Below are positions 26,770-43,388 of a stretch of DNA of 64,000 nucleotides, in pieces; within the stretch, counting starts at the first letter, position 1, and each line of letters begins with the position of its first letter. Under the pieces are notes generated by a model. The model did no database searches. It saw only the letters and a program-made list of their open reading frames with translations, and was not told the DNA's origin. Source of the stretch: an uncultured delta proteobacterium. Lineage in GTDB: Bacteria; Desulfobacterota; RBG-13-43-22. The DNA lies in assembly GCA_963843145.1 (NCBI GenBank), contig CAWJJC010000022.1:160001-224000 (forward strand). Reading direction: 5' to 3'. The translations under genes and the position numbers were made by a program.

Positions 26770-27228
26770 TTATTTGAAACACAGCTCGAGATGAAACCCC
26801 CCGTTGGCTGAGTCGAAGGGAATGGAAATAATGGGATCCTTGGTCACGTGTCGTATCTCGTGCCTGGGGCCCGTAATAACCGAAGGGATGGCCCCCTGAT
26901 AGAGGATCCCGGCCGTCTCCAGCCTCCGCCGGGCATCGCCGGAAATCATATTGGTAAACTCGCCCACCGCATCTTTCACTTCCTCGGTGATCTCCGTAAA
27001 GGGCTCACCGAACATACTGCTAACAATGTGCAGGATGCACTCTTTGGAGAAGGACAGGCTTAAGGATCCTTCGCTTTCTCCGGTCATGCCCACAATCCCG
27101 GAGATGTCTCCGGTGGAAATACTCCCTTTTTTGAGAAAGGGTTTGCCCGGTGCCAGGTCCACGGAAGACATTGTTTTAATCACCGAAACCGTAGCTTCCA
27201 AAAAAGAATTTATTATTTCAACTTTCAT
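26770..27228 (-). CDS. cheX: CheY-P phosphatase CheX
   Basis: INSFLEAT, GDISGIVGMTG, ExxN motif DAVGEFTNMISG. Confidence 0.92.
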   Translation of the reverse strand: MKVEIINSFLEATVSVIKTMSSVDLAPGKPFLKKGSISTGDISGIVGMTGESEGSLSLSFSKECILHIVSSMFGEPFTEITEEVKDAVGEFTNMISGDARRRLETAGILYQGAIPSVITGPRHEIRHVTKDPIISIPFDSANGGFHLELCFK

Positions 27229-27285
27229 AGTCTCTGATTCCTTTCAATGACTAGCCGCTAACATTTTTTAGAGGGAATAAAACCG

Positions 27286-28002
27286 TCAACCGACTTTTAT
27301 TTTTTGTATCCCCAGACGTTGTTGTTCAAAGATCAACCGTTCCAGTTGGGAGCGGCTCGATCCCGGCATCTGTAAAAATTCCAAAGCACCCTGAATGGTG
27401 TGCGGGGGAAAATCAGCAATCCGCCGAATTTCAGCCGAAGGAATAGGGATGGTTAGGAGTTCCTCTCCCAGAGGGAAGAGTAAGGCATTATCCTGCAACG
27501 TAACATCGACCGCCAGTTCCTTAAACCACTGTTCTCCTAGTTCCTTATAAAAAGCTACCCCACCCGTGCTGTAATCTTTGACCCGGGCTTTATATTCTTG
27601 ATGAAGCAAGTCTCGGACCAAAATTTCCATCCCCAGCGAGGCCTTGACCCGGAAAAAGGCGCGCCGTTGCACCCGGTTGATCATCCGGGGCAGTTCCACC
27701 CAGATTTCCTTGGGCTGCAAGAAGTGGACTTCGGTGGAAAAATGGAAGGGGACACGGGTTCGATCAAAAAACGAGAAGGCAATGGTTTGATTTCTGGATA
27801 AACGCAAGGCTTGATCAAACCCGGCTACCTGGTCGATGATCAGCCATGGCCCCCCCGGACCGGTCTCAAATCCCAGAAAGAGGGTAATCCAGGAAAATTC
27901 CGTTTGGGGGATCTCCATCCGGACTCGTTGCCGTGATTTGATGGCGGACTGGAGTATCAGGGGGATGTCCCCACCCTGGAGAAGTTGTGCCGGTTGTTCC
28001 AT
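27286..28002 (-). CDS. YcgR-like flagellar brake protein (PilZ domain)
   Basis: N-terminal YcgR-like domain then RxxxR (QRRAFFR) and DxSxxG (DYSTGG). Confidence 0.82.
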   Translation of the reverse strand: MEQPAQLLQGGDIPLILQSAIKSRQRVRMEIPQTEFSWITLFLGFETGPGGPWLIIDQVAGFDQALRLSRNQTIAFSFFDRTRVPFHFSTEVHFLQPKEIWVELPRMINRVQRRAFFRVKASLGMEILVRDLLHQEYKARVKDYSTGGVAFYKELGEQWFKELAVDVTLQDNALLFPLGEELLTIPIPSAEIRRIADFPPHTIQGALEFLQMPGSSRSQLERLIFEQQRLGIQKIKVG

Positions 28003-28031
28003 TGAATCGGTTCTTCCCTCAGACCCTAACC

Positions 28032-28400
28032 CTATTCGGGATCAAAGGGGTAATGAATAATTTCGGCATCGATCGCCTCGGGGTTCCCCGTATTATAGTA
28101 AAGAAGGTTTTTCAGATGGACAAAGGAGGTCGGGTCCATTTCCAGAAAGCGGACACCGATTCCTGTCTCGTCTGCCCGGGCTACCACTCCCTTAATACTC
28201 AAGGTGAGGGGGTGATTCCCTAGGCCCAGGGCGATCTTTACTTCCCCGGTCGCACCCTTCTCCGGTCGGAGAGCGGTAACAAAATAGACGCCCGTTAAGC
28301 TGAGATCTTTTGAATCGGAAGAGAGCAGCTCCTCCCCTTGAATGATGAATCGGACTCGGGTATGGAAAGGCACTCGAGTTCGGCGGCGGCGGTTGTTCAT
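28032..28400 (-). CDS. Stand-alone PilZ domain protein
   Basis: RRRRTR and DLSLTG motifs, GIGVRF. Confidence 0.9.
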   Translation of the reverse strand: MNNRRRRTRVPFHTRVRFIIQGEELLSSDSKDLSLTGVYFVTALRPEKGATGEVKIALGLGNHPLTLSIKGVVARADETGIGVRFLEMDPTSFVHLKNLLYYNTGNPEAIDAEIIHYPFDPE

Positions 28401-29194
28401 CCGGCGGTCCTTGGTTCAGGCCGGGGGTGCGATCCTCCTGGCCTGGGCTCAGCGGCTTTGAGTATTGCAGGGGGTTGACCGTCGGTTAGGGTATTCAGAA
28501 ATTCCCGGGCCTCCTTGAAATCCTCTTTCAAGGTCAAGGCCTTGGTCATTTGTTCTATGGATTCCTCCCGGTCCTTTTTTTCGTAATAGGCCCGTCCCAG
28601 ATTATAGTAGAGCACCGGATCTTCCGGATCGATGGCGATGGCCTTGACATAGTTGGAGACGGCCTCGTCATGAAGATTGCGCTTGCGCAATTCGATACCG
28701 AATTCATTGAAAATGTGTTTGTTCTCGTTTTCATACAAGTCATCCATTTGGGATAGTTGGTCGAAAATTTCCTTGGCCTCCTTTTTTTCTCCCCTGGCAT
28801 AGAGGCTTTTCCCTTTGCCCAGATTGGCCTTCAGATCTTTTTCATTCAACGCCAGCGCCTTATTGAATTCTCGTTCGGCGCTGAAAAATTGTCGGTGATC
28901 GTAGTGCTCTTCTCCCAATTCCACATATTTTTCCGCCAATTGGGCTTTCGGGTCCTTTTTATTTTTGAAGTATTCGGGACAGGGAGTGTAGTCCTGGTCC
29001 AGTTCCTCCCGGGTGATCAGGGTCGCTTCTCCGAAGGGTTGATCGCTGATGTTCAACATACGAATGGACACCATATTTTCCTCGTCGGCCTCCTCGACTT
29101 GAAAATAGTTTTCAATGGTTGTGTCTCGGGAAGTGGATCCAAACCCCAGCCTGATTATTTCCTGCTTCAAAAAAATTCTTCTATTTTGTTCCAT
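28397..29194 (-). CDS. TPR protein with uncharacterised N-terminal domain
   Basis: TPR repeats (ANLGKG, IFNEFGIELRK, LYYNLGRAY). Confidence 0.85.
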   Translation of the reverse strand: MEQNRRIFLKQEIIRLGFGSTSRDTTIENYFQVEEADEENMVSIRMLNISDQPFGEATLITREELDQDYTPCPEYFKNKKDPKAQLAEKYVELGEEHYDHRQFFSAEREFNKALALNEKDLKANLGKGKSLYARGEKKEAKEIFDQLSQMDDLYENENKHIFNEFGIELRKRNLHDEAVSNYVKAIAIDPEDPVLYYNLGRAYYEKKDREESIEQMTKALTLKEDFKEAREFLNTLTDGQPPAILKAAEPRPGGSHPRPEPRTAG

Positions 29195-29213
29195 TAGCGC
29201 TCCCTGCGCTTAT

Positions 29214-29264
29214 AGGGAATATTTGCGAAACCGTCATCATTTGACGGATTCGCAAATATTCCCT
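29214..29264. repeat. Long intergenic inverted repeat
   Basis: AGGGAATATTTGCGAA-A-CCGTCA, 5 nt loop, TGACGG-A-TTCGCAAATATTCCCT: 22 of 23 positions paired. Confidence 0.9.
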
Positions 29265-29871
29265 TATTGGTAAAGAAATTCATCAAAATATAACTTCTTG
29301 ATCTCCCGGGAAGGCAAGCGCTGGTTCAGCCGGCCTAATAATTCTCTTTTAAGTTTTTCCCGGTATTCGGGGTTCATCAGATCCGTCAGTTGCTGGTCAC
29401 CCAAGGTCAGAATTACCGTATCCGTAAGGGGCGCAGTCCGCTCCTTAATTTTTTCCAGATCGTCCGCTTTCACCAGTTCCAGGACAACCGCCACCTTGAC
29501 AAAATGAAATCCTGAGGGTTCATTTAGATTGATGACCAGGGAACTCAATTTTAAAGTCGGCCCCATTTCCGGCGGCTTTTCCGGAGGTTTGGCGGCCATC
29601 CTGGTCTCCCCTTTATTCCCCGGAGCTTCCAGATTCGGACTGCTGATTTGAATCCAGCCCAGCAACATGGCCCCCATGATTCCCCCGCTAATAATCAACA
29701 TGCCGGCCAAGATATAGATAACAACAGAGAAACGCTTCAGCCACCCGGAAGACTTCCCGCTGGAAACATCCGCTGATTGGCGCTCGCCTTCGGTCCCCCC
29801 TCGGCCGACCGACTCCTGGCTGGGATCAATCTCCAATAGGTCTATTTCGGTTTTCTTATTGCCTTTGGCCA

Positions 29872-29872
<1 letters not shown>
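29264..29872 (-). CDS. fliL: Flagellar basal body-associated protein FliL
   Basis: Single TM; LVINLNEPSGFHFVKV, LKRELLGRLN, KLYFDEFLYQ. Confidence 0.88.
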
Positions 29873-31463
<1,591 letters not shown>

Positions 31464-31500
31464 TTTTTCCCCTGTCCATCAATTAAGTCCAGGAGGAAGG

Positions 31501-31977
31501 TTAGTCCTCCATTAGGATTTCTAACCGGATCATTTGGTCTTCAGCTAAGAAATCCAACTGGAGCCACTTCGGCGACGTCCCCGGGTCGGCCGAATCTCTG
31601 AACCCAATGACTTCGGTCTCAGGAATGGTCAAGGCATATCCGTAGGCTCGATCGTACCGGGAAAAGAGATTACCGCATATCATGTTGGTTAATTCTTTTG
31701 TCATATCGATCACCTGCTGCTCGGAAGCCTCTTCCTCCAACCCCAGAAAATTGGTGGTCAGATCCCGAGCCAAGGGAATGGGCAGAAAAAGCCGCAGATG
31801 TCCCCGCAGCTTACCCTTAAAGCCGAGCCGGCATTTAAGCCAGTGTTCATTTTGGGACCAGGGGTTGCCAGCGGAATCGCCCAAGTCCGGGGTGTACGGC
31901 TCCAGAAAAACAAAAAACATGGTCTCGAATACATGGCCAAGGGCCTCGACCGCCGCCGCCTGTAGTTCATTTTCCAT
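31501..31977 (-). CDS. CheX/CheC-like phosphatase
   Basis: VFETMFF, GFKGKLRG, ExxN motif DMTKELTNMICGN. Confidence 0.8.
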   Translation of the reverse strand: MENELQAAAVEALGHVFETMFFVFLEPYTPDLGDSAGNPWSQNEHWLKCRLGFKGKLRGHLRLFLPIPLARDLTTNFLGLEEEASEQQVIDMTKELTNMICGNLFSRYDRAYGYALTIPETEVIGFRDSADPGTSPKWLQLDFLAEDQMIRLEILMED

Positions 31978-32356
31978 TGACCACCTCCAGAATGCCGGTC
32001 AGGATATCCCGGACGGCCTCCGGGTAAAAAGGCTTCTGGATATACCCGTTTATCCCTAAGGCCTTGGCCTCTTGGATCCGCTCCTCGCTGCCTTCAGTGG
32101 TGATTAACACCACCGGGATATGGCGATAGTTTTCATCCTGCTTCAGCGCCCGGAGCAGTTCCAGACCGTTCATCCGGGGCATGTTGAGGTCCGTCAGGAT
32201 GATATCCACCCAGCGGTCGTTTAAGGCCTCCAGGGCCGCCTGCCCGTCCACGGCTTCCCAGCATTCGCCGATTTCAAAACCGGAAAGGGCGACGGTTTTC
32301 TTGATCACCATTCGCATGGTTTGCGAATCATCGACGATCAACACATTATAAGCCAT
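31967..32356 (-). CDS. cheY: CheY-type single-domain response regulator
   Basis: IVDDS, TDLNMP, ITTEG, YIQKPF. Confidence 0.9.
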   Translation of the reverse strand: MAYNVLIVDDSQTMRMVIKKTVALSGFEIGECWEAVDGQAALEALNDRWVDIILTDLNMPRMNGLELLRALKQDENYRHIPVVLITTEGSEERIQEAKALGINGYIQKPFYPEAVRDILTGILEVVNGK

Positions 32357-32470
32357 GATCCTTCTCCGAGTACCTGCTTTTGCTTTAAAAGGTTCCTACC
32401 ATCCGGGGTGAATTCTCTCTGGGATTGGAAGCGGCCGGACCTCAGAAGAAAAGGTTCGCCGTCCTATCTC

Positions 32471-33322
32471 TTAGTTCACCTCCAGCCAGGATTGGACTAC
32501 CTGTAGACGGTCATTAAGCTGAACAATACATTTTTCCAAGTCTTTTTCTCGGAGGCGGAAATGCTTCATAATCTCCGGGTCCCCTTCATAGTACAGGCCG
32601 TCTGAACCGCCGCCGATGCCGGTGATCAGGGCCATGCAGTTGGCCAAATGGATCAGGGCCACTAGGTCCGGATCATCTCCCCGGCACAGCCAGGGCGCAT
32701 GATGGTATCGAACCGCCTCGATTATGGAGTGGGGGAACCTCCATTTTTCGGCAATCAGTCCCCCCAGTTCGGCATGGTCCATTCCTAACACCTCCCGCTC
32801 CGCCGCAATAAACGAATAGCCCTTTTCCCTGACCAAGGTCTTGATCTTCTCGAAGGTCTCCCGCACAAAGGCGCTGAGGACCACTTTGCCCATGTCGTGG
32901 AGCAGGGCGGCCGTAAACTGGGTAGCGCTGGGCTCCCGATGTATATGCTGGGCGACAATTTCGGTCAGGATGGCGCAGCTTACCGAATGTTTCCACAAAG
33001 CCCCGGTGTCCAGGTTGTATCCCTGGCAGGGACGGACCAGAACGCCCTGGAAGGAACGGTTTAAAATGATCTGCATTAAAGTATTAAAACCAACGAACAC
33101 CAGAGCTTCTTTTAAGGAATGGACCTGGCGACGGAGGTTGAAGTAGGCGGAATTACAGACCTTCAGCACCTGAGAGGTGACCCCCTGATCGTATTGGATG
33201 ATTTCTACCACGTCCTGGGCGGAACTCCGAGGATCGTTGATGGACTGCAAGGCCCGGAGAATGATCGCCGGGAAAGGCGGAAGTTGGTCGATGGACTGAA
33301 CGATCAAGGCGATCCGGTTCAT
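32471..33322 (-). CDS. HDOD domain protein
   Basis: LPPFP, VLKVCNSAYF, LWKHS, LLHDMGK, GMDHAELG..IAEKWRFP, RYHH. Confidence 0.92.
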   Translation of the reverse strand: MNRIALIVQSIDQLPPFPAIILRALQSINDPRSSAQDVVEIIQYDQGVTSQVLKVCNSAYFNLRRQVHSLKEALVFVGFNTLMQIILNRSFQGVLVRPCQGYNLDTGALWKHSVSCAILTEIVAQHIHREPSATQFTAALLHDMGKVVLSAFVRETFEKIKTLVREKGYSFIAAEREVLGMDHAELGGLIAEKWRFPHSIIEAVRYHHAPWLCRGDDPDLVALIHLANCMALITGIGGGSDGLYYEGDPEIMKHFRLREKDLEKCIVQLNDRLQVVQSWLEVN

Positions 33323-33798
33323 AATTCGGTTTCTCCTTCCCCCGAGGTCTTCAGCCAGACCTGGCCGGTGGCCATCTCCAGGCGCATCGTCCGGTTGACC
33401 ATCCCACCTACATGTTCCGCCTTGATCAGAACGTTATTGCGCCATAATATCTTTCGCATGGCCGCATAGTTGCGTTTGCCGATATTAAAGAAACCGGCGT
33501 TATCCATAATTTGGGACCCGCCAGCCACCTTAACGATCATTCGTCCTTTTTCCGCCCCCAATTTATAGGATTCCTTAAAAAGCAGGGGGATCCCCGTGTC
33601 GGCAAACATCCAGGGATTACGCCTGGCCTTCTCCGGGTCGATCTGGGATTCCGGCAGCATCATATGCAGGAGTCCCCCCACCTTGGCGAGAGGATCAAAC
33701 ACCGCCACCCCGATGCAGGACCCCAGGGCATAAGTAATCAGGGTAGCGTCGGGGTTCTTGGTAACCTTCAGGTCAGCGATTTCTACTACGAGGCGCAC
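33319..33798 (-). CDS. cheD: Chemoreceptor glutamine deamidase CheD
   Basis: TYALGSCIG, GLLHMMLP, FADTG, IGKRN, EHVGG. Confidence 0.93.
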   Translation of the reverse strand: MRLVVEIADLKVTKNPDATLITYALGSCIGVAVFDPLAKVGGLLHMMLPESQIDPEKARRNPWMFADTGIPLLFKESYKLGAEKGRMIVKVAGGSQIMDNAGFFNIGKRNYAAMRKILWRNNVLIKAEHVGGMVNRTMRLEMATGQVWLKTSGEGETEL

Positions 33799-33810
33799 GC
33801 AAAAAAGTCC

Positions 33811-34659
33811 TTATTTTTTATAGATGGCCGGTTTAACATATTTAAAGGGGTGCGGAATGCCGGTCAAGCTCTCGGAGTGGCCAATAAAAAGGACGCCCTC
33901 CGGGCCCAGGCATTGGTAAAAACGGTTCACCAAGGTTTCCTGGGTTTTTTTGTCAAAATAGATCATCACATTGCGGCAAAAAATACAATCAAAGGGTTCC
34001 TGGAAAGGAAAAGGTTCCATCAAGTTAAACCGTTTGAATTCCACGGGGTCTCTTAATCGATTTTTGACTTTTATATATTCCCGCCATTGCTGGTCCCCCT
34101 TTAAAAAGTATTTTTTAATCAGCGGGGAGGGGAGATTGCGAATTCGGTCCTGCTCGTAGATCCCGGCCATGGCCTTTTTCAATACTTTGGTGGAGAGGTC
34201 CGTGGCCAAAATTTTGATTTTCCATTTTTCAGGATGCGCCAACCCCTCCAGCAAGGTGATGGAAATGGAATAGACTTCTTCCCCGGAAGAGCAACCGGCG
34301 CTCCAGAGGCGGATTTGCGGGTCCCGGCCTTTCCGGGTCGCCGTCCATTGGGGGAGCAGTTCATTTTTCAGGTAGTCAAAATGGCTTTGTTCCCGGAAAA
34401 AACTGGTCAGGTTGGTGGAAATAGAGTCCAGGAGAAACACCAGTTCCTCTCCCGAGTTGTCCTCGACCACGTACCGGTAATAATCCCGGAAGGACTTAAA
34501 CCGGCCCTGCCGGACCCGCTTGCTTAGTCGGGCCTTGATCAGCTCCTTTTTGCCGTCATGAAGCGAGATCCCGCTTTGCTCATACACCAGGCGGCTGAAT
34601 TGTTCGAAGTCAACCTGGGTTAGTTCAAATTCGGAAACCGGTTGTTGCTGATTAGGCAA
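33811..34659 (-). CDS. cheR: Chemotaxis methyltransferase CheR
   Basis: STNLTSFFRE, WSAGCSSGEE, ATDLS, IFCRNVMIYFD, GHSES; TTG 34659 follows GAGGAG (alternative ATG 34674). Confidence 0.97.
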   Translation of the reverse strand: MPNQQQPVSEFELTQVDFEQFSRLVYEQSGISLHDGKKELIKARLSKRVRQGRFKSFRDYYRYVVEDNSGEELVFLLDSISTNLTSFFREQSHFDYLKNELLPQWTATRKGRDPQIRLWSAGCSSGEEVYSISITLLEGLAHPEKWKIKILATDLSTKVLKKAMAGIYEQDRIRNLPSPLIKKYFLKGDQQWREYIKVKNRLRDPVEFKRFNLMEPFPFQEPFDCIFCRNVMIYFDKKTQETLVNRFYQCLGPEGVLFIGHSESLTGIPHPFKYVKPAIYKK

Positions 34660-35155
34660 ACACGGACTCCTCATCCGCCGATAGAACCCGGTCGATATCC
34701 AACAGGATTTTAACCTGTCCCTTGACCTTGGCCAGACCCAGGATATAATCCGTATTGAGCGCGCTGCCGAGGTTCGGGGTGGGTTCGATGTCTTCTCCGG
34801 AAATATTCAAAACCTCGGAAACCGAATCCACTATTATCCCGATGGGGATGGACCCGCCACTGCCCAAAATTTCCACTACGATAATACAGGTCCGATCGGT
34901 GTAGTCCTCCTCCATGATTCCGAATTTGGACCGCAGCGAAATCACCGGGATGACTTTACCGCGCAGATTGATCACCCCCTTGATATGCTCCGGTGTGCGG
35001 GGAACCGAGGTGATCTCCAGAATACCGATGATTTCCCGGACCTTCAGGATCCCTATCCCGTATTCTTCCTGTCCCAGGGTAAAAGTTAAGTATTTCCCTT
35101 CTTTTCCTTTAAGGCCCTGATTAAGGCCTTCCATTTTTCTGGCTGCTTCTGCCAT
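34652..35155 (-). CDS. cheW: Chemotaxis coupling protein CheW
   Basis: KYLTFTLGQEEYGI, GVINLRGKVIPV, GIIVDSVSEV. Confidence 0.97.
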   Translation of the reverse strand: MAEAARKMEGLNQGLKGKEGKYLTFTLGQEEYGIGILKVREIIGILEITSVPRTPEHIKGVINLRGKVIPVISLRSKFGIMEEDYTDRTCIIVVEILGSGGSIPIGIIVDSVSEVLNISGEDIEPTPNLGSALNTDYILGLAKVKGQVKILLDIDRVLSADEESVFA

Positions 35156-35224
35156 TTTTACCCCCCGCTCTACCCGCCCGACCTTTTAAAAAGGCGGGGA
35201 GGATAAGTTAACAATTTGATCTGG

Positions 35225-36862
35225 TTAAAACTCTTTGAAATCTTCCTCATCCAAAGGAATTACCTGGCTGGGAGGGATTTCCCGCCCCGGCGTCGGGATT
35301 AGTCCTTTGGGCGTCGTCCGAGGCAAAGGTGCGGGGAATCGATTGGACCCGGCCGCCTTTGCCGCAGGCTGGCGGTGGCCGTTTTGTCCGGTTTTGAACA
35401 TGGCCATAATGGAGGCCAGTTCTTCGGCCCCGGCGGCGTTCTGCTGGGTTACTTTATTCATTTCCGCGACGGCCTGGTTGATCTGTTCCAAACCCTGGGA
35501 CTGTTCCCGGGTGGCCGCAGCCATTTCTGCTATCAAGTCTTTGACCTTACCGGAATTTATGGTCGCCTCGCCGAAATTCTTATTGGTCAGGGTGACCACC
35601 CCGACACCGCCCTGGATTTTTTTAACGATGTCCTCGATCAAGGTGGAGGTATTCCGGGCCGCCTCCGCGGCCCGCATGGCCAGATTGCGAACCTCATCGG
35701 CCACCACCGCGAATCCTGCTCCCGCTTCCCCGGCTCGAGCCGCCTCCACGGCGGCGTTCAGGGCCAGCAGATTGGTCTGGAAGGCGATTTCGTCGATGGT
35801 TTTGATGATTTTCTGGGTCTGTTCACTGGACGAGGCGATGTCCTTCATCGATTGGGTCAATTCCGTCATGGAAACACTGGTTTTGTCCATTAATTGGTTA
35901 TTGTCGGTAATCAGGGTATTGGCTTGGTCGGCGTTCTCGGCGTTTTGCTTGGTCATGGAGGACATTTCCTCCAGGGAAGAGGAGGTTTCTTCAATGGAGG
36001 CCGCCTGTTCGGAAGCCGCTCCCGATAAGCCCTGAGACATAGCCACGGATTGCCCCACCGCCTCGCCGAATTTTTGCCGCATTTCATTGATTGCCGCGGA
36101 CAATTCCCCAATCTCGTCTCGGGAATTGACCTGCACCTCCTGGGTCAGATCCCCTTGGGCGATTAGTTGCACCGTATGATTGGCTCGGTTGATCGGCCCG
36201 GTGATGGCACGGGCCAAATAAATGTTGATCCCCAACGACAGGACGATGGCGGCGATCAGGACCAGCGTAAAAAAGAATACCGTCTGGTCAAAACCTTTTA
36301 ATGCCCGATCATACTGCTCCTGACTGGCCTTGTCCTGGATATCCAGTATTTCCTGAAGCGTTTTGTTCAGGAGTTGAAATTTTTCCTCCAGCGAGCTGCT
36401 CACCATCATGGCGGCCGAATTGACGTCTGCGGAAGACATATCGATGGCGTCCAGGGCCACCTTTTGATAGGCCTTTAATTGATCCAAGGCGGTTTGCAGT
36501 TTTTTCTTTTCCTCCGCCTCCAGACCGGGCCGCTGCACCAGTTTATCGATCGAGGCCAAGTTTTTCCCCAGCGCAGCTCCCTGGGCTTTTTCCAGCTCTT
36601 CCACCCGGGTTTTGTTGGTATTGGTGTTAATCCAATTCATCAGTTTATTCACATTGCCGTGGATGGTGCCGACGTCCTGCAAAATTTTAGCGAAGGCCTG
36701 GTAGTCCCTGAATTCCACCTGGTAGATATCAGACAAAGCTTTTTTTTGTCCAACCAGCCCCCGGTAAGCCATGCCGGCCAGAACCAGCACAAATAGAATC
36801 ACCACCAGGGGGCCGACCAAGAGTTTTTTCATCATGGATAAGCGGTTGATTAACTGAAACAT
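35225..36862 (-). CDS. Methyl-accepting chemotaxis protein (helical sensor, HAMP)
   Basis: Two TMs, HAMP (IAQGDLT...DEIGEL), signalling tip [21 protein letters not shown]-terminal DFKEF. Confidence 0.95.
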
Positions 36863-37040: not shown

Positions 37041-39266
37041 TCAATTCTTATGCAATTCAAAAATCCCGTTGATGTCCAAAATCAGCCCGACCCGACCGTC
37101 GCCCATGATCGCTCCGCCGGCCAGCCCTTTAACCTCTCTGAATTTTTCCCCCAGGGTTTTGATAACCACTTCCTGTTTGCCCACCAGGTCGTCCACCATT
37201 AGGCAGCGTTGTTGACCTTCGTTTTCCACCACCACCACCAGCGCCTCCCAGGGATCCTGCCGCTGGGGGACCACCCCCAGCAGACCATAGAGCCGAACCA
37301 GAGGCAGCAGCAGGTTTCGAACGTTGACCACTTCGCCCCGGCTTTGGATGGTGGATACATCCGTTTGCAGGGGTCGAAAGGTTTCTTTAATAGCCACGGT
37401 GGGGATAATGTAGCGCTCCTGCCCGATACGGACGATAATGCCGTCCATGATGGCCAGGGTCAACGGGACCCGGATGCTGAAGCGGCAGCCCTTTCCTTCC
37501 TCGGAGAAGACTTCCACTCGCCCTTTCAATTTTTCAATGGCCCTTTTGACCACGTCCATCCCCACTCCGCGTCCGGAAACATCGGTAATCTTTTCAGCCG
37601 TGGAGAAACCGGGCTCGAAAATCAAATTGTCGATCAGGTGGTTGGTCAATAGGGCGTCCTCAGGAATCAGGCCTCGCTCCCGGGCCTTGGCCAGGATCCG
37701 TTCCCGGTTCAACCCCTGCCCATCATCCTCAATCTCGATAACGATATTGCCTCCTTTTTGAAAGGCCTGCAAAACAAGTTGCCCAGCCTCGGCTTTGCCC
37801 GATTCCCGGCGTTTCGACGGCGATTCGATGCCGTGATCAACGGAGTTGCGGATCATGTGAACCAGGGGATCGTAAAGGGCCTCGACCATATTCCGGTCGA
37901 TCTCGGTTTCCTCTCCGAACATGTTCAATTCCACCTGTTTTTCCGATTTTCTGGCCAAGTCCCGCACCAAACGAATCATCTTCTGAAAGGTCTGGCGGAT
38001 GGGAATCATCCGCAACGACATTGAAATCTTTTGCATTTCAGCGGTGATTCTTTTCAGTTGGGCGAAATCGCGGGAAAGCTTGGGATCGTTCAGAGAGGAC
38101 ACCGTCGGATTTTGCTGCACCAGGGTCTCGGCGATGACCAGTTCACCCACCATGTCCACCAGATTGTCCAGTTTGTGGGTATCCACCTTGACGGTGGTTT
38201 CGGCAAACTCTCCGGCGATTTTTTTTTGATCCCGGAGGGCCTCGATGACCTGTTTGGGTTTAATTTTTTCCTCGGCAACTAAAATCTCCCCCAATTTTTT
38301 TAGGGGTGGTTGGTCACTCTGGACCCTAAGGGCCTCCTGGACATCCGCCGAGGTAATGAATCCTTTGGAGGTCAATAATTCCCCCATCCGGGGGGGGGCG
38401 GTATCCTCGTCTCCCTTGGGCCGGAGGGCCGCCGGCGATTCGGTCGCGCCCTGCTGCAACCATTCGATTTTTTCGAAATAAGGAGCCAGGTCGAATTCCG
38501 CGTGGCCGATTTGTCCGGCTTCAATATTGGCCCGCAAATCAAAGATCATTTTTTTCAGGAGATCGACGGCCTCTAAGATGAAGTCCACCATTTTCTGATT
38601 GATGGCTAATTTTTCGTTGCGAACGTTATCCAGCAACGACTCCACCCCATGAGAAAAGCGGTGAATGTCCTTGAGATTCAGAAAACCGGAAACCCCTTTC
38701 AGAGTGTGAAAGGGGCGAAAGATGGCATTGATGGTTTCTTTGTCTCCCGGAGACTGTTCGAGGTTGATCAGGTTCACTTCAATGGTATCTAAGTGTTCTA
38801 ACCCCTCGGAAATGAAGTCCCGGTAGAGTTCCAGGTCCTGGGCCACAGAAAAGGCCTCATCCGGAGTTTCTTCCTGAGGGGAAGATGGTTTTTCCTCTTC
38901 CAGAGAAGACGCTTTTTCACCGGCAATCGGCCTCAGCAGTTCCCAAAAGGCCTCCTCTTCAGGGGTCGAGGGTCCGGGCTTGCCGTCTCGAACTTGGGCC
39001 TGAAGGACCTTTACCCCCCGGTTCAGGAGTTCCGAGGCCTTATTCGAATCAGGGAGTTCAGTCAAAATCAGTTTTTCCACCAGGTTCTTGAGGCCTTGAG
39101 CGATGGCAGTCGTCGATTTTAATCCTGATTCCACGGCTGTTATCGTTAGTTTTTCCAGTAGCTCCAACAGGGAACCCAGACCCATGATGTCTTCAGGGTC
39201 CACCAGAACCGTTAGAACGGCTATCTGTTCCACCGTCTCGTTTAATTGCTGCAGATGTTCCGTCAT
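37041..39266 (-). CDS. cheA: Chemotaxis histidine kinase CheA
   Basis: Hpt IFRPFHTLKG, dimerisation KLDNLVDMVGELVI, HATPase HMIRNSVDHGIE and SGRGVGMDVV, C-terminal CheW domain; ATG 39266 follows AAGGGG. Confidence 0.97.
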   Translation of the reverse strand: MTEHLQQLNETVEQIAVLTVLVDPEDIMGLGSLLELLEKLTITAVESGLKSTTAIAQGLKNLVEKLILTELPDSNKASELLNRGVKVLQAQVRDGKPGPSTPEEEAFWELLRPIAGEKASSLEEEKPSSPQEETPDEAFSVAQDLELYRDFISEGLEHLDTIEVNLINLEQSPGDKETINAIFRPFHTLKGVSGFLNLKDIHRFSHGVESLLDNVRNEKLAINQKMVDFILEAVDLLKKMIFDLRANIEAGQIGHAEFDLAPYFEKIEWLQQGATESPAALRPKGDEDTAPPRMGELLTSKGFITSADVQEALRVQSDQPPLKKLGEILVAEEKIKPKQVIEALRDQKKIAGEFAETTVKVDTHKLDNLVDMVGELVIAETLVQQNPTVSSLNDPKLSRDFAQLKRITAEMQKISMSLRMIPIRQTFQKMIRLVRDLARKSEKQVELNMFGEETEIDRNMVEALYDPLVHMIRNSVDHGIESPSKRRESGKAEAGQLVLQAFQKGGNIVIEIEDDGQGLNRERILAKARERGLIPEDALLTNHLIDNLIFEPGFSTAEKITDVSGRGVGMDVVKRAIEKLKGRVEVFSEEGKGCRFSIRVPLTLAIMDGIIVRIGQERYIIPTVAIKETFRPLQTDVSTIQSRGEVVNVRNLLLPLVRLYGLLGVVPQRQDPWEALVVVVENEGQQRCLMVDDLVGKQEVVIKTLGEKFREVKGLAGGAIMGDGRVGLILDINGIFELHKN

Positions 39267-39381
39267 ATTTTCCCCTTGTGAAGGCCGATATCTTTTTAAC
39301 GGTGGGGACGCTGCCACACTGAATACTGATCGGAGAAATATTCTTGAAACTTGATAAATTTATTGAACTGTTTGGATAGTT

Positions 39382-40028: not shown

Positions 40029-40808
40029 ATGGACAAAGCATCATTAATCGGCATCCTGCTGGGCGTCGGGGCGGTCATCGGGGGGATGGTTTTGGAAGGC
40101 GGCCACCTCGGTTCCATCATGCAGCTCACTGCCGCCATCATCGTCATGGGGGGGACCTTTGGGGCCGTATTCCTGAGCTTTCCCTTTGAGGCGGTCTTGA
40201 CAGGCTTCAAGGACCTAAAAAGAATTTTTATAGAACCGGCCCTCAACCCTTTTCAGTATATCGACCTGATTATCAGTTTTGCCAATAAGGCGCGAAAAGA
40301 GGGGATCCTTTCTCTGGAAAGAGAGATCAAGAACATCGAGCACCCTTTTATGAAGAAGGCCCTGACCATGGCCGTCGACGGGGTGGAACCCAAGATCATG
40401 CGCGAAGCCATGGAAACCGAACTGGCCTACATGGATGAATATGGGAAGTTAAGCGGCAAAGTCTGGCAGGCTGCCGGGGGCTATGCCCCGACCGTCGGGA
40501 TCCTGGGGGCCGTATTAGGGCTTATTCATGTGATGGAGAACTTGAATGACCCCAGCAAACTAGGACCGGGGATCGCCGTGGCCTTCGTGGCTACCGTTTA
40601 CGGCGTGGGTTCGGCCAATTTGTTTTTTCTGCCCATGGCCACCAAATTAACGCACCGTCATCAAGAGGGTTTAGTGATCAACGAAATGATCCTGGAGGGG
40701 GTGGTGGCCTTGTCCACCGGGGAAAACCCCCGGCTGATTGAAGAAAAACTCACCACTTATCTATCGGAACACCAGAAAAATAAAAACCCGAGCCCGAAAA
40801 AGGAATAA
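40029..40808 (+). CDS. motA: Flagellar stator MotA
   Basis: ARKEGILSLE, GGYAPTVGILGAVLGLI, IAVAFVATVYG, GENP. Confidence 0.95.
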   Translation: MDKASLIGILLGVGAVIGGMVLEGGHLGSIMQLTAAIIVMGGTFGAVFLSFPFEAVLTGFKDLKRIFIEPALNPFQYIDLIISFANKARKEGILSLEREIKNIEHPFMKKALTMAVDGVEPKIMREAMETELAYMDEYGKLSGKVWQAAGGYAPTVGILGAVLGLIHVMENLNDPSKLGPGIAVAFVATVYGVGSANLFFLPMATKLTHRHQEGLVINEMILEGVVALSTGENPRLIEEKLTTYLSEHQKNKNPSPKKE

Positions 40809-40822
40809 TAAGGATATCCATT

Positions 40823-41653
40823 ATGGCTAAAAAGAAAAAGGCCGAGGAACACGAGAATTTAGAACGGTGGTTGGTTTCTTATGCCGATTTTATTACCCTG
40901 CTCTTCGCTTTTTTTGTGACCATGTATGCCAGCTCCCGGGTGGATGAACAAAAAATGGGATCGGCGGTGGAATCCCTGCAACGGGCACTGGGCGCGGTGA
41001 TCGCCGTGCCGGTCCCCAGCCGACAGGCTGGAGTATTTCATGATTTCAGCACCCCGGTCCAGGTGACCATTGTTCCCATCGGCGCCCCCCACGCCCAAGA
41101 GGTGAATAAGCTGGCTCAGGAGTTGAAGAAAAAAATTGAAGGACCCCAGGGAAAAGGTGGGAAAAAAGCCGGTACCCAGGCCTACCAGGTAAGTTTTTTA
41201 CTTCAGGAGCGGGGACTGGTAATCCGGGTTTCAGACCAGTTTTTTTTCCAGACCGGAGAAGCGGCCATCCGTCCCGAAGTCCAGCCCTTTTTGAAGGTCC
41301 TCGGACAGACATTGCAGGGCTTGGATAATTCCATCCGCATCGAAGGCCATACCGACAATGTCCCGATCAACACCGCACAGTTTCCTTCCAACTGGGAACT
41401 TTCCACGGCCCGGGCGACCACCATCATCCGTTATTTCCTAACCAACTTCCAATTCGACCCTCAAAAACTTTCTGCCGCCGGTTACGGGGAGTTTCGACCG
41501 ATCGCCGCCAATGACACCCCGGAGGGGCGGGATCAAAACCGCCGGGTGGACGTGGTGATCTTGAACAGCCAGGAAAAGAAGAATGAACCGGCGGGCCTGA
41601 TGAAAAAAGAAAAAGAGGCCGCCCGGAGTCACCCCGGCGCTCCCAAGAGTTGA
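40823..41653 (+). CDS. motB: Flagellar stator MotB
   Basis: ERWLVSYADFITLLFAFF, EGHTD, SNWELSTARA, NRRVD. Confidence 0.95.
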   Translation: MAKKKKAEEHENLERWLVSYADFITLLFAFFVTMYASSRVDEQKMGSAVESLQRALGAVIAVPVPSRQAGVFHDFSTPVQVTIVPIGAPHAQEVNKLAQELKKKIEGPQGKGGKKAGTQAYQVSFLLQERGLVIRVSDQFFFQTGEAAIRPEVQPFLKVLGQTLQGLDNSIRIEGHTDNVPINTAQFPSNWELSTARATTIIRYFLTNFQFDPQKLSAAGYGEFRPIAANDTPEGRDQNRRVDVVILNSQEKKNEPAGLMKKEKEAARSHPGAPKS

Positions 41654-41686
41654 TCCCTACCCAATAAAAACCTCAGCCTGGAGGGA

Positions 41687-41719
41687 TTTTTTTTGCCGGG
41701 TCTTCAGCGGCAAAGAAAA
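41687..41719. terminator. Probable terminator between the convergent motB and HD-GYP genes
   Basis: TTTGCCG / CGGCAAA stem flanked by T and A runs. Confidence 0.55.
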
Positions 41720-41816
41720 TATTTTAAGCATTGCGTCCTTAGCGTCTTGGCGGTGAAAAAATCCTGCAAGTGTTCTCCAACCGAGACCCGCCGCTCGAAA
41801 AACCATGGTCGATTTA

Positions 41817-43388
41817 TTAACCGGCAACCATCACCGACTCCGCCAGCCGCCCTTCCTGATTAACCATAGCCGCGTTCAGGGGATTGTCTCCGTTATTCAC
41901 GATTTCCACCAGGGCTTCCACCACCTGCGGGTCGAACTGCGATTGACTGCAGCGGGTGATCTCCTGGAGGGCCTCTTCTTGATTCAGGGCTTTGCGGTAG
42001 GAGCGGTCGGAAGTCATGGCATCGTAGGCGTCCGCCACCGAAATAATCCGGCAGAGGAAAGGAATTTGATTCCCTTTTAAACCATCCGGATACCCGGCCC
42101 CATCCCAGCGTTCGTGGTGATGGCGGATGATGGACTTTTCCATGGCGGAAATTCCCAATTGATTGATGATCCGCTCTCCGGTGGTGGGATGCATCTTGAT
42201 CATATCGTATTCATCCTTATTCAGCCTGGAAGGCTTCAGCAGGACATAATCCTGGACCCCGATTTTCCCGATGTCGTGCAGCGGTCCGGCAAAGGCCAGG
42301 GCGGCAATTTCTTCTTCGGGGCGGTTCATTTTCCGGGCAATGGTCATGGCCAATTGGGTTACCCGCTCAGAATGCTTCATGGTGTAGGGGTCCTTGGCCT
42401 CTATAGTGCTGACCAGGGCCTTCAAGGTGGCATATAGATTTGAGACCACGTTTTCATACAGGGCGATATTTTCGATGGTCATGGCCGCCTTTTCGCTAAG
42501 AATCGAAAGCAAGAAAAGGTCTTCTTCGGAAAAGGGCCTCCCCTGATCACGATCGGCCAACTGCAACACCCCGAAGGTTTCCTGGCGAATCTTTAGGGGC
42601 ATGGCCAAAAAGGATGAAGGCTTTCCTCCCAGGGACTCGTCGGGAAAAGAGAGCAGGCTTTCTTCTCCCAAACCGAGGACGGGCATCCCGTCCTGGGCCA
42701 CCTTGCCCACAACCCCTTGGCCCAGGGGTACGACCAGGTGATTGATCAGGCTGGGATCCATTCCCACACCGGCAATCAATCGCAGTTGACCCGCCTCCCG
42801 ATCCCAGATGAAAAATGCCACCTTCCGGGCATCGGTCAGATGGGCGGCCATGTTGACAATCTGGTGGAAGAGGTCCTCTTTGCCCCGGACCTGGCTCAAC
42901 TGGTCCATGATGGTATACAAAATGGTTTGTTCCTTGACTTTCTTTTCCAGCTTCAGGTTCAGTTCTTCCAGGATTTTCTTGGCCCGGACTTCTTCCGTCA
43001 GCATCTTATTTTCATTGAGCAGTTTCTTCTCTTTGGTCAGTCGTTCCAAGGTCAGACTCACCTGTTCCAACTGGAAGGGTTTGATCAGGAAGTCCGAGGC
43101 CCCCTTTTGGATGGCCTCGATCATAATTTCAAAGGAAGGCTGGCCGGTCATGAGGACGATCATCACGTCCTTGTTAAGCTGCTTGATTCTGCCCAGGGTC
43201 TCCAGCCCGGTAAACCCGGGCATGTACATGTCCATGAAAACACAGTCCATTTCCACCTTCTGGATCCAATTGAGTCCCTCAATCCCGTCGGTGGCCAGAA
43301 AGACATTGTTGCCTTTGAACTCCCGCAGGTAGGCATCCAACAAATTGCGGATAATGGGATCGTCATCAACCACCAGTATGTTCATCAT
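41817..43388 (-). CDS. REC-GAF-HD-GYP response regulator phosphodiesterase
   Basis: REC (VVDDD, MDMYMP, KPF), coiled coil, GAF (GVVGKVA, PFSEED), HD-GYP (LHDIGK, HHERWDGAGYPDGL). Confidence 0.93.
   Translation of the reverse strand: MMNILVVDDDPIIRNLLDAYLREFKGNNVFLATDGIEGLNWIQKVEMDCVFMDMYMPGFTGLETLGRIKQLNKDVMIVLMTGQPSFEIMIEAIQKGASDFLIKPFQLEQVSLTLERLTKEKKLLNENKMLTEEVRAKKILEELNLKLEKKVKEQTILYTIMDQLSQVRGKEDLFHQIVNMAAHLTDARKVAFFIWDREAGQLRLIAGVGMDPSLINHLVVPLGQGVVGKVAQDGMPVLGLGEESLLSFPDESLGGKPSSFLAMPLKIRQETFGVLQLADRDQGRPFSEEDLFLLSILSEKAAMTIENIALYENVVSNLYATLKALVSTIEAKDPYTMKHSERVTQLAMTIARKMNRPEEEIAALAFAGPLHDIGKIGVQDYVLLKPSRLNKDEYDMIKMHPTTGERIINQLGISAMEKSIIRHHHERWDGAGYPDGLKGNQIPFLCRIISVADAYDAMTSDRSYRKALNQEEALQEITRCSQSQFDPQVVEALVEIVNNGDNPLNAAMVNQEGRLAESVMVAG

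Follow-up and report, generated by a model that had tools for sequence, protein, structure and literature searches.

A CheA kinase with an MshEN_N domain of the c-di-GMP receptor type in place of P2 in a deltaproteobacterium

Introduction

Cyclic di-GMP (c-di-GMP) is known to act on chemotaxis at several points, namely the receptors, the partners of methyltransferases, the phosphatases and the motor, and to our knowledge direct control of the kinase CheA by this messenger is hinted at only by one in-vitro binding measurement. Here we describe the CheA of an uncultured delta proteobacterium, a sulfate-reducer-type bacterium, encoded in a stretch of 64,000 nucleotides (contig CAWJJC010000022.1, positions 160,001 to 224,000; hereafter the window). 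Between its phosphotransfer domain P1 (Hpt) and its dimerisation domain P3, this protein carries MshEN_N, a domain of the c-di-GMP receptor type made of a tandem MshEN motif.

The domain is known from the N terminus of the Vibrio cholerae pilus ATPase MshE (5HTL), where a tandem 24-residue motif folds into four helices. In each motif the backbone amides of Gly3 and of the next residue read one guanine, Gln24 contacts the ribose-phosphate, positions 2, 17 and 21 make up two triangular hydrophobic clusters, the first residue, an Arg, stacks on a base, and a Gly in the middle forms the turn between helices (Wang et al., 2016; PMC5013675). In MshE and PilF the adjoining subdomain, MshEN_C, partly covers the ligand (PMC5013675 for MshE). 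This subdomain is not needed for binding, since the isolated V. cholerae MshEN_N (residues 1–62) binds c-di-GMP with a dissociation constant (KD) of 0.35 µM; the same domain binds cyclic GMP-AMP (cGAMP) weakly, with a KD of 3.3e-4 M (PMC5013675). The GSPII-C domain of Thermus thermophilus PilF binds c-di-GMP at about 0.3–0.5 µM, similar to MshEN (KD2 324–460 nM in PilF constructs; PMC11731258).

Fusions of MshEN_N with CheA were listed by Wang et al. (2016), who gave their range as 'Actinobacteria, Proteobacteria' (PMC5013675, Supplementary Table 4). The CheA of Aeromonas veronii (EKB11881) has the order HPT, CheY-binding, MshEN_N, H-kinase_dim, HATPase_c, CheW, and its residues 261–390 (MshEN_N and P3) bind c-di-GMP with a KD of 2.6 µM by isothermal titration calorimetry, despite four substitutions that include a Lys opening motif 2 (PMC5013675, Supplementary Table 6). 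The sequence-only reading that drew attention to the present CheA rightly stated that such fusions had been noted computationally, and overlooked this 2016 measurement. The kind of fusion, including one binding measurement, has thus been known since 2016. New here are a class of CheA that lacks P2 and has an extra N-terminal domain, a non-Gly turn fixed in a clade, the wide spread and repeated loss of MshEN_N, and its presence in the sole CheA found in an organism.

Among kinases of another family, Caulobacter ShkA and CckA work in a comparable way, as cytosolic histidine kinases under direct second-messenger control. The c-di-GMP site of CckA differs from MshEN_N, that of ShkA is a pseudo-receiver domain, and neither protein is a CheA or uses MshEN_N. 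In ShkA, c-di-GMP binding frees a mobile domain (PMC6969517, PMC7010744), a release that parallels the control of the mobile P1 of CheA proposed below. Other systems also tie c-di-GMP to chemotaxis, namely Cbp1 (a PilZ-bearing chemoreceptor), the PlzC–CheX pair and Pch (a phosphodiesterase activated by CheA), but in the available accounts of them they act at the receptor, at the phosphatase or downstream of CheA, and none has a receptor inside the kinase.

An MshEN_N domain between P1 and P3

The cheA gene lies at 37041..39266 on the minus strand and encodes 741 amino acids (aa) from an ATG at 39266, from which residues are numbered here (this is the numbering of the longest open reading frame, ORF, minus 17). 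Residues 293–347 (38226..38390, minus strand), between the Hpt and the dimerisation domain, consist of two 24-residue repeats joined by seven residues, exactly as the sequence-only reading had quoted them. Motif 1, RMGELLTSKGFITSADVQEALRVQ, covers residues 293–316 (38319..38390, minus strand; helices 294–300 and 306–318), and is followed by the linker SDQPPLK (38298..38318, minus strand) and by motif 2, KLGEILVAEEKIKPKQVIEALRDQ, at residues 324–347 (38226..38297, minus strand; helices 325–331 and 337–354). The two motifs are identical at 11 of 24 residues.

Their assignment to the MshEN family, proposed from the letters alone, is borne out by profile search. The model NF053729 (c-di-GMP_motif, MshE-related) matches the segment from end to end (model positions 1–53 of 53) with 44.7 bits, for a cut-off of 38, and an E-value of 8.4e-12. 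A six-frame scan of the 5.35-Mb genome with the same model gave three matches only, the CheA segment at 49.1 bits and the N-termini of two PilB/GspE-like frames of about 570 aa. Because the match is full-length, above the cut-off and one of just three in the genome, it is not due to chance. When CheA was searched against the sequences of the Protein Data Bank (PDB), T. thermophilus PilF came first (E 8.6e-10, 6f8l residues 303–367), in an alignment that runs without a gap across the seven-residue linker; V. cholerae MshE appeared weakly (E 0.078).

Structure prediction leads to the same family. Alignment A1 combines the segment with its counterpart in 29 CheAs that other genomes of the phylum encode, and the AlphaFold model of the 77-residue segment made from this alignment (mean pLDDT 79.8) is a four-helix bundle, the fold of MshEN_N. 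In a Foldseek comparison with the PDB, ranks 1 to 10 are all c-di-GMP-bound MshE or PilF GSPII-B; 5htl_B superposes at 0.9 Å root-mean-square deviation (rmsd) over 58 columns (TMq 0.70), and the E-values are weak (best 9e-3), as expected for 60 residues. VIA-align gave a Z of 10.0 both with PilF GSPII-B and with 5htl_A, the latter at an rmsd of 1.7 Å over 60 residues that correspond to the MshEN_N subdomain (chain residues 5–64), while degenerate PilB/PilF relatives scored from 7.3 down to 3.7 and the top unrelated chain 3.7. A match of CheA to DUF4388 (E 0.068) was under the cut-off and was not used. There is thus strong evidence that residues 293–347 are a genuine MshEN_N, the 55-residue four-helix c-di-GMP receptor type.

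The surroundings of the domain set it apart from its relatives. In MshE it forms the start of a pilus ATPase, with MshEN_C after it, and in PilF the GSPII-C and GSPII-B domains (6F8L, 8PDK) are complete GSPII domains of a traffic ATPase, whereas in this CheA MshEN_N stands alone within a kinase, inserted in the flexible tether between P1 and P3. Its linker has seven residues, as in PilF GSPII-C, the best PDB sequence match, and not five as in MshE (PMC5013675).

Ligand-contact residues and the turn of motif 2

The residues that contact the ligand in MshE are found in this CheA. Their conservation was counted in the 119, of the 120 homologues listed below, with residues in 45 or more of the 55 columns. 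Gly3 (G295 in motif 1 and G326 in motif 2) is present in 119/119 homologues in each motif, Gln24 in 115/119 (Q316) and 119/119 (Q347), Leu21 in 113/119 (L313) and 115/119 (L344), Arg22 of motif 2 (R345) in 119/119 and Gly10 of motif 1 (G302) in 114/119. Across the 30 CheAs of A1, no column is invariant except one Leu and, in each motif, Gly3 and Gln24. Positions 2, 17 and 21 are Met, Val and Leu in motif 1 and Leu, Val and Leu in motif 2, within the relaxed motif of PMC5013675, with Val and not the Leu of MshE at position 17 of both. The segment is free of all eight substitutions described for the non-binder XpsE by Wang et al. Motif 2 does not open with Arg, a feature shared with PilF GSPII-C, and the Lys found at this position is tolerated in the A. 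veronii CheA.

The turn between helices differs from one motif to the other. Motif 1 has Gly10 followed by two hydrophobic residues (Gly-Phe-Ile). That repeat 2 lacks the second Gly, as had been pointed out before, is correct: position 10 is E333, followed by K334, where MshE has Gly47-Phe48 and where PilF GSPII-C and GSPII-B and the A. veronii CheA keep the Gly. In the 119 homologues this position is Gly in 5, Asn in 47, Lys in 21, Gln in 19, Glu in 12 and His in 7, and position 11 is Lys in 95. Since Gly occurs in just 5 of them, the non-Gly turn is a fixed trait of the clade and not the erosion of one gene. Farther from this clade, other CheAs of the phylum do have a Gly at position 10 of motif 2, several among the 30 of A1 and 51/80 in a set rich in Syntrophobacteraceae. 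In the same genome, a 563-aa PilB/GspE-like frame (L002, G000:C2:106370-109531) has a motif 1 with a Glu-Asn-Lys turn and no middle Gly, and matches NF053729 with 64 bits, which makes the non-Gly turn a recurrent natural variant.

Absence of P2

P2, the domain that binds CheY and CheB between P1 and P3, has an alpha/beta fold; it is present in model CheAs and is not universal. As the sequence-only reading had supposed, none can be recognised here. Pfam-A at E ≤ 10 found neither P2 (PF07194) nor the CheY-binding family (PF09078) in CheA, and PF07194 is absent from the whole genome at E ≤ 1, in a scan whose controls were detected. The AlphaFold model of the whole protein is free of beta strands up to residue 420, and the stretch from the end of Hpt to motif 1 is just 39 residues long. 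These four lines of evidence agree, so that 'in place of P2' is correct as a positional statement.

The relatives of this CheA have the same layout. The gap from Hpt to the motif is 23–54 residues in 30/30 related loci, which leaves no room for P2, and Pfam at E ≤ 1e-5 found P2 or CheY-binding in 0/54 of the nearest cluster representatives. Lack of P2 is therefore the rule among the relatives of this CheA, and the A. veronii CheA, which keeps its CheY-binding domain, represents a different architecture.

Distribution, gain and loss

This CheA has the only H-kinase_dim match, and is hence the sole CheA found, in a genome that is 97.9% complete. A protein search restricted to residues 290–440 retrieved 594 proteins at E ≤ 1e-5, of which the best 120 are CheA-sized; the named ones among these 120 are assigned to Deltaproteobacteria, Desulfobacterota, Thermodesulfobacteriota, Desulfobacca, Desulfosoma and Dissulfurirhabdus thermomarina. 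In 401 genomes of the phylum, a 145-aa query made of MshEN_N and P3 matched 210 genomes at E ≤ 1e-5. Among its best 150 rows, 129 cover MshEN_N as well as P3 (the match begins no later than query residue 21) and come from at least 123 of the 401 genomes (92 at E ≤ 4e-22), while the other 21 have P3 only or start late; 159 further rows are weaker. The motif itself was inspected in the best 30 loci, all of which (30/30) are CheAs with Hpt upstream and P3–P4 downstream.

The class is also widespread among 1.84 billion cluster representatives, which a profile of MshEN_N and P3 (A3) matched 122 times at E ≤ 1e-30. Of the best 150 matches, 126 have the fused unit in one stretch, and the other 24 are proteins with 4–8 MshEN_N repeats. 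Pfam was run on 54 of the 126, picked among those of at least 711 aa, and found H-kinase_dim in 54/54, HATPase_c and CheW in 52/54 and Hpt in 51/54. Named carriers include Desulfacinum infernum DSM 9756, D. hydrothermale DSM 13146, Desulforhabdus sp. TSK and many metagenome-assembled genomes of Syntrophobacteraceae and Desulfarculaceae; the first three and Dissulfurirhabdus thermomarina are cultured carriers. In the named-genome set, 79/80 kept loci span MshEN_N and P3.

Several variants of this architecture were seen. Two or three Hpt stretches occur in 26/54 representatives, and tandem Hpt before MshEN_N also in two loci of the phylum search (L015, L033). A subgroup of CheAs of 682–860 aa (P0104–P0106, P0114, P0115, P0117–P0120) has four motifs, that is, two tandem MshEN_N before P3. 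Proteins of 400–1180 aa (P0121, P0123–P0127 and others) have 4–8 consecutive MshEN_N-like stretches and no P3.

The domain is not present in all CheAs of the phylum. In 17 CheAs that matched through P3 only (L129–L145), an A1 profile at E ≤ 10 found no MshEN_N in the 140 residues before P3, and a low-complexity linker rich in Pro, Ala and Glu stands in its place. We built a maximum-likelihood tree from the P3–P5 core of 46 CheAs, of which 30 have MshEN_N and 16 lack it (L145 was dropped, its core being 103 aa), rooted at the midpoint only. One group (support 82/86) unites all 30 carriers with 10 of the non-carriers. The presence of MshEN_N needs at least 6 changes on this tree, and at least 5 are imposed by branches with good support. 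Most simply, the tree can be read as a single ancient gain of MshEN_N followed by several losses, at least 5, a history that fits a dispensable regulatory module. The CheAs L129–L145 are thus natural deletion variants nested among carriers, and the linker of one of them (L143) ends with a REQK remnant.

Proposed mechanism and its alternatives

From these observations we infer that MshEN_N probably works as a c-di-GMP receptor in this CheA, and that its occupancy may feed into the delivery of P1 and the phosphorylation of CheY; the explanation as a whole seems to us about as probable as all others together. Each MshEN_N would bind one c-di-GMP, the guanines being read by the backbone amides of Gly295-Glu296 and Gly326-Glu327 and the ribose-phosphate being held by Gln316 and Gln347. 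Met294/Val340/Leu344 and Val309/Leu313/Leu325 would form the two hydrophobic platforms, and Arg293 and Lys324 would cap the bases. The ligand-bound domain would then alter the delivery of P1 to P4 or to CheY, or contact the catalytic core. We propose control of P1 delivery because MshEN_N lies 9 residues from P3, next to P4, and on the tether of P1; in the geometry of CheA, the end of the P3 bundle before which MshEN_N sits adjoins P4. CheY phosphorylation, and hence the whole chemotaxis output, would follow the cellular level of c-di-GMP. Direct gating of the kinase by c-di-GMP, as the sequence-only reading had suggested, is a plausible hypothesis, and if we had to guess at a direction we would lean slightly towards inhibition at high c-di-GMP.

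A number of observations weigh against this explanation. As regards the identity of the domain, PF05157 (MshEN/T2SSE_N) has no match in CheA at E ≤ 10, and the alpha/beta subdomain MshEN_C is absent, as no strands are predicted there and P3 begins 9 residues past motif 2. The supplement of PMC5013675 states that the Pfam MshEN model of 2016 lacks the first three helices. As regards binding, the Glu-Lys-Ile turn of motif 2 does not fit even the relaxed pattern of one of Gly, Ala or Ser followed by two hydrophobic residues. Binding drops considerably when Leu or Ile takes the place of the middle Gly (Wang et al., 2016; PMC5013675, Fig. 3d legend), and F48K together with G40E is the probable cause of lost binding in domain 3 of Deinococcus geothermalis PilB (PMC5013675 supplement); in CheA the equivalent of G40 is intact and that of F48 is Lys. 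The Syntrophobacteraceae-rich set (n = 80) adds a further point. Motif 2 is intact there (Gly3 80/80, Gln24 80/80), and motif 1 is degenerate in its second half (Gln24 32/80, Leu21 36/80), so that CheAs of this type may have a half-site or have lost binding, and binding would not be universal in the family. Because the Gly turn is missing and the neighbouring Lys is suspected in loss of binding elsewhere, we regard c-di-GMP binding by the CheA studied here as likely but not certain.

As regards transmission to the kinase, apo and holo PilF GSPII-B are described as both rigid and near identical apart from one helical turn, so we expect a change in contacts and not ligand-induced folding or a large domain change. 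A rigid continuity from the fourth helix of MshEN_N into P3 was not seen in the model of CheA, in which residues 354–360 have a pLDDT below 50, and this low-confidence break leads us to predict no rigid coupling between the two domains. Pointing the other way, towards a regulatory module, the spacer between motif 2 and P3 is exactly 9 residues in 18/30 related loci; it ranges from 4 to 28. A complex prediction with the P3–P4 dimer, P1 and c-di-GMP, in which MshEN_N was the partner, gave a score of 0.06 (mark 0.32), which weighs neither for nor against the proposal. Finally, in the open-access PMC and bioRxiv literature we found no study on the effect of c-di-GMP binding on CheA, in agreement with what the sequence-only reading had said.

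The MshEN_N of this CheA could also be degenerate, bind no nucleotide and serve as a folded spacer in the tether between P1 and P3, which we consider doubtful. The Glu333-Lys334 turn, in place of Gly-Phe, brings together changes of the kind that Wang et al. (PMC5013675) tied to weaker or lost binding, related CheAs manage without MshEN_N, and degenerate MshEN_N domains are known, for example in XpsE and PilF GSPII-A (PMC5013675, PMC11731258). However, a spacer would not keep Gly3 twice, Gln24 and the Arg22 of motif 2 as strictly as the counts given above show. Moreover, where the segment lost its function, the lineages concerned swapped in a low-complexity linker and did not keep the fold, and a turn of the same non-Gly type, Glu-Asn-Lys, is found in a PilB-like ATPase of the same genome that scores 64 bits.

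Somewhat less probable still is that MshEN_N binds c-di-GMP without altering catalysis, and acts as a ligand-dependent docking or localisation module or on array assembly. It might then dock CheY or a phosphatase, as a surrogate of P2, or bring a c-di-GMP-metabolising enzyme or a PilZ protein to the array. MshEN_N occupies the place of P2, which is a pure docking domain, and the subdomain that covers the ligand in MshE and PilF is missing, so that c-di-GMP would be half exposed, with one face free. In addition, genes for PilZ, CheX, HDOD and HD-GYP proteins lie in or near the operon, and a PilZ protein is reported to act through CheX in V. cholerae (PMC12799141). On the other side, no partner was identified, and conservation of the PilZ and HD-GYP neighbours stops at the genus. 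Docking of PilZ on MshEN_N as in the PilB–PilZ pair of Xanthomonas citri was set aside, since the mutated interface of that pair lies at residues 72–134, past the four-helix ND0 (our model matches residues 13–70).

It is very improbable that a cyclic dinucleotide other than c-di-GMP, for instance 3'3'-cGAMP, is the physiological ligand: the MshEN_N of V. cholerae has a weak affinity for cGAMP, as mentioned in the Introduction, cGAMP signalling is known in some Deltaproteobacteria and the altered turn of motif 2 might, speculatively, shift specificity, but both guanine-reading Gly-Glu pairs are kept symmetrically, and two guanines are therefore favoured over cGAMP.

If c-di-GMP binding gates the kinase, the preferred explanation, this CheA would be a new and simple node in the decision between motile and sessile life, and a 55-residue ligand-controlled module for kinase engineering. 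If there is no binding, the clade would show which MshEN positions the ligand requires and the fold does not. The protein is a clean test case, as it is the sole CheA of its genome, lacks P2 and keeps every ligand-contact residue of MshEN_N, and the sister CheAs with a plain linker offer natural 'deletion controls'. An extension that we put forward tentatively, and think unlikely to hold in full, is that MshEN_N is a c-di-GMP switch on P1 delivery in the whole P2-less class, that the adjacent HD-GYP protein, as a target of CheA, may close a feedback loop on c-di-GMP in this genus, and that the Glu-x-Lys turn is tuned, in affinity or coupling, and has not decayed. In that case the sole chemotaxis kinase would be turned down or up directly by c-di-GMP.

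Domain layout of CheA

The longest ORF of cheA (37041..39317, minus strand) has 758 codons from a GTG at 39317. The ATG at 39266 is the likely start because the Shine-Dalgarno sequence AAGGGGA lies 5 nucleotides upstream of it and because CheA homologues are about 740 aa long. A promoter and terminator scan around the gene stayed near chance level. Pfam found Hpt, H-kinase_dim, HATPase_c and CheW in the order of a CheA, all over the cut-off, with Hpt at 163–255 and H-kinase_dim at 374–434 in the numbering of the ORF, so that P1, P3, P4 and P5 follow one another and P1 has the conserved His; the CheA model NF007835 matches with an E-value of 2.2e-131, yet under its equivalog cut-off. P1 (38454..38846, minus strand; residues 141–271; Hpt, E 1.4e-13) has five helices in the model and the phospho-accepting His187 within RPFHTLKG, invariant in 65 sequences. 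P3 (38016..38198, minus strand; H-kinase_dim, E 2.9e-14) is followed by the kinase domain P4 (37458..37871, minus strand; HATPase_c, E 1.5e-18), in whose sequence we can read what we take to be the N, G1, F and G2 boxes, and by the CheW-like domain P5 (37056..37442, minus strand; CheW, E 2.3e-24). Full-length CheA was folded with 64 homologues (mean pLDDT 77.9); the model shows helices at 2–115, disorder at 116–140, Hpt at 141–271, a low-confidence linker at 272–293, MshEN_N, the break at 354–360, then P3, P4 and P5.

The N-terminal residues 1–115 (38922..39266, minus strand) form a five-helix domain (helices 2–21, 27–46, 50–67, 74–94 and 102–115; AlphaFold pLDDT 83–92) that belongs to no named family and has no sequence match in Pfam or the PDB. 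It is kept in 23/30 related CheA loci and, unlike the A. veronii CheA, this class has it as a conserved feature. Compared by hhalign with the Hpt of the same protein it gave a probability of 20% and an E-value of 1e-3, and the position opposite the phospho-accepting His is not a His. An Atlas Hpt cluster at 0.89 was taken as a lead only, and we left the domain unnamed; it is possibly a His-less Hpt-like bundle, that is, a pseudo-Hpt.

Genomic context

The genes around cheA were annotated by Pfam on 24 neighbouring ORFs, and the context is rich in proteins linked to c-di-GMP. Downstream (26770..36862, minus strand) follow MCP, CheW, CheR, CheD, HDOD, CheY, CheX, CheD, CheB, FliL, TPR, PilZ, PilZ and CheX. 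Upstream, within 40029..43388, lie motA and motB on the plus strand and, at 41817..43388 on the minus strand, a REC-GAF-HD-GYP response regulator with an intact HHExxDGxGYP motif (HHERWDGAGYP); flagellin, FliD and FliS follow beyond them. Speculatively, this regulator might be a phosphotransfer target of CheA that degrades c-di-GMP. The genome has 19 GGDEF matches, and Rfam found no family at its gathering score in the whole window, hence no c-di-GMP riboswitch there.

Related genomes share the core order CheA-(MCP)-CheW-CheR-CheD-HDOD-CheY-CheX-CheB, while the PilZ and HD-GYP neighbours are kept within the genus only, HD-GYP adjacency being found in two genomes of the same genus only. The HDOD gene (32471..33322, minus strand) lies inside the che operon between cheD and cheY, and phmmer found HDOD in 11/14 neighbourhoods of MshEN-CheAs. 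The tail of the operon (26770..28400, minus strand) encodes PilZ proteins of 122 and 238 aa and then the second CheX. Both PilZ proteins show RxxxR and DxSxxG, which we take to be the PilZ motifs. This tail of two PilZ genes and cheX recalls the link between PlzC and CheX reported in V. cholerae (PMC12799141).

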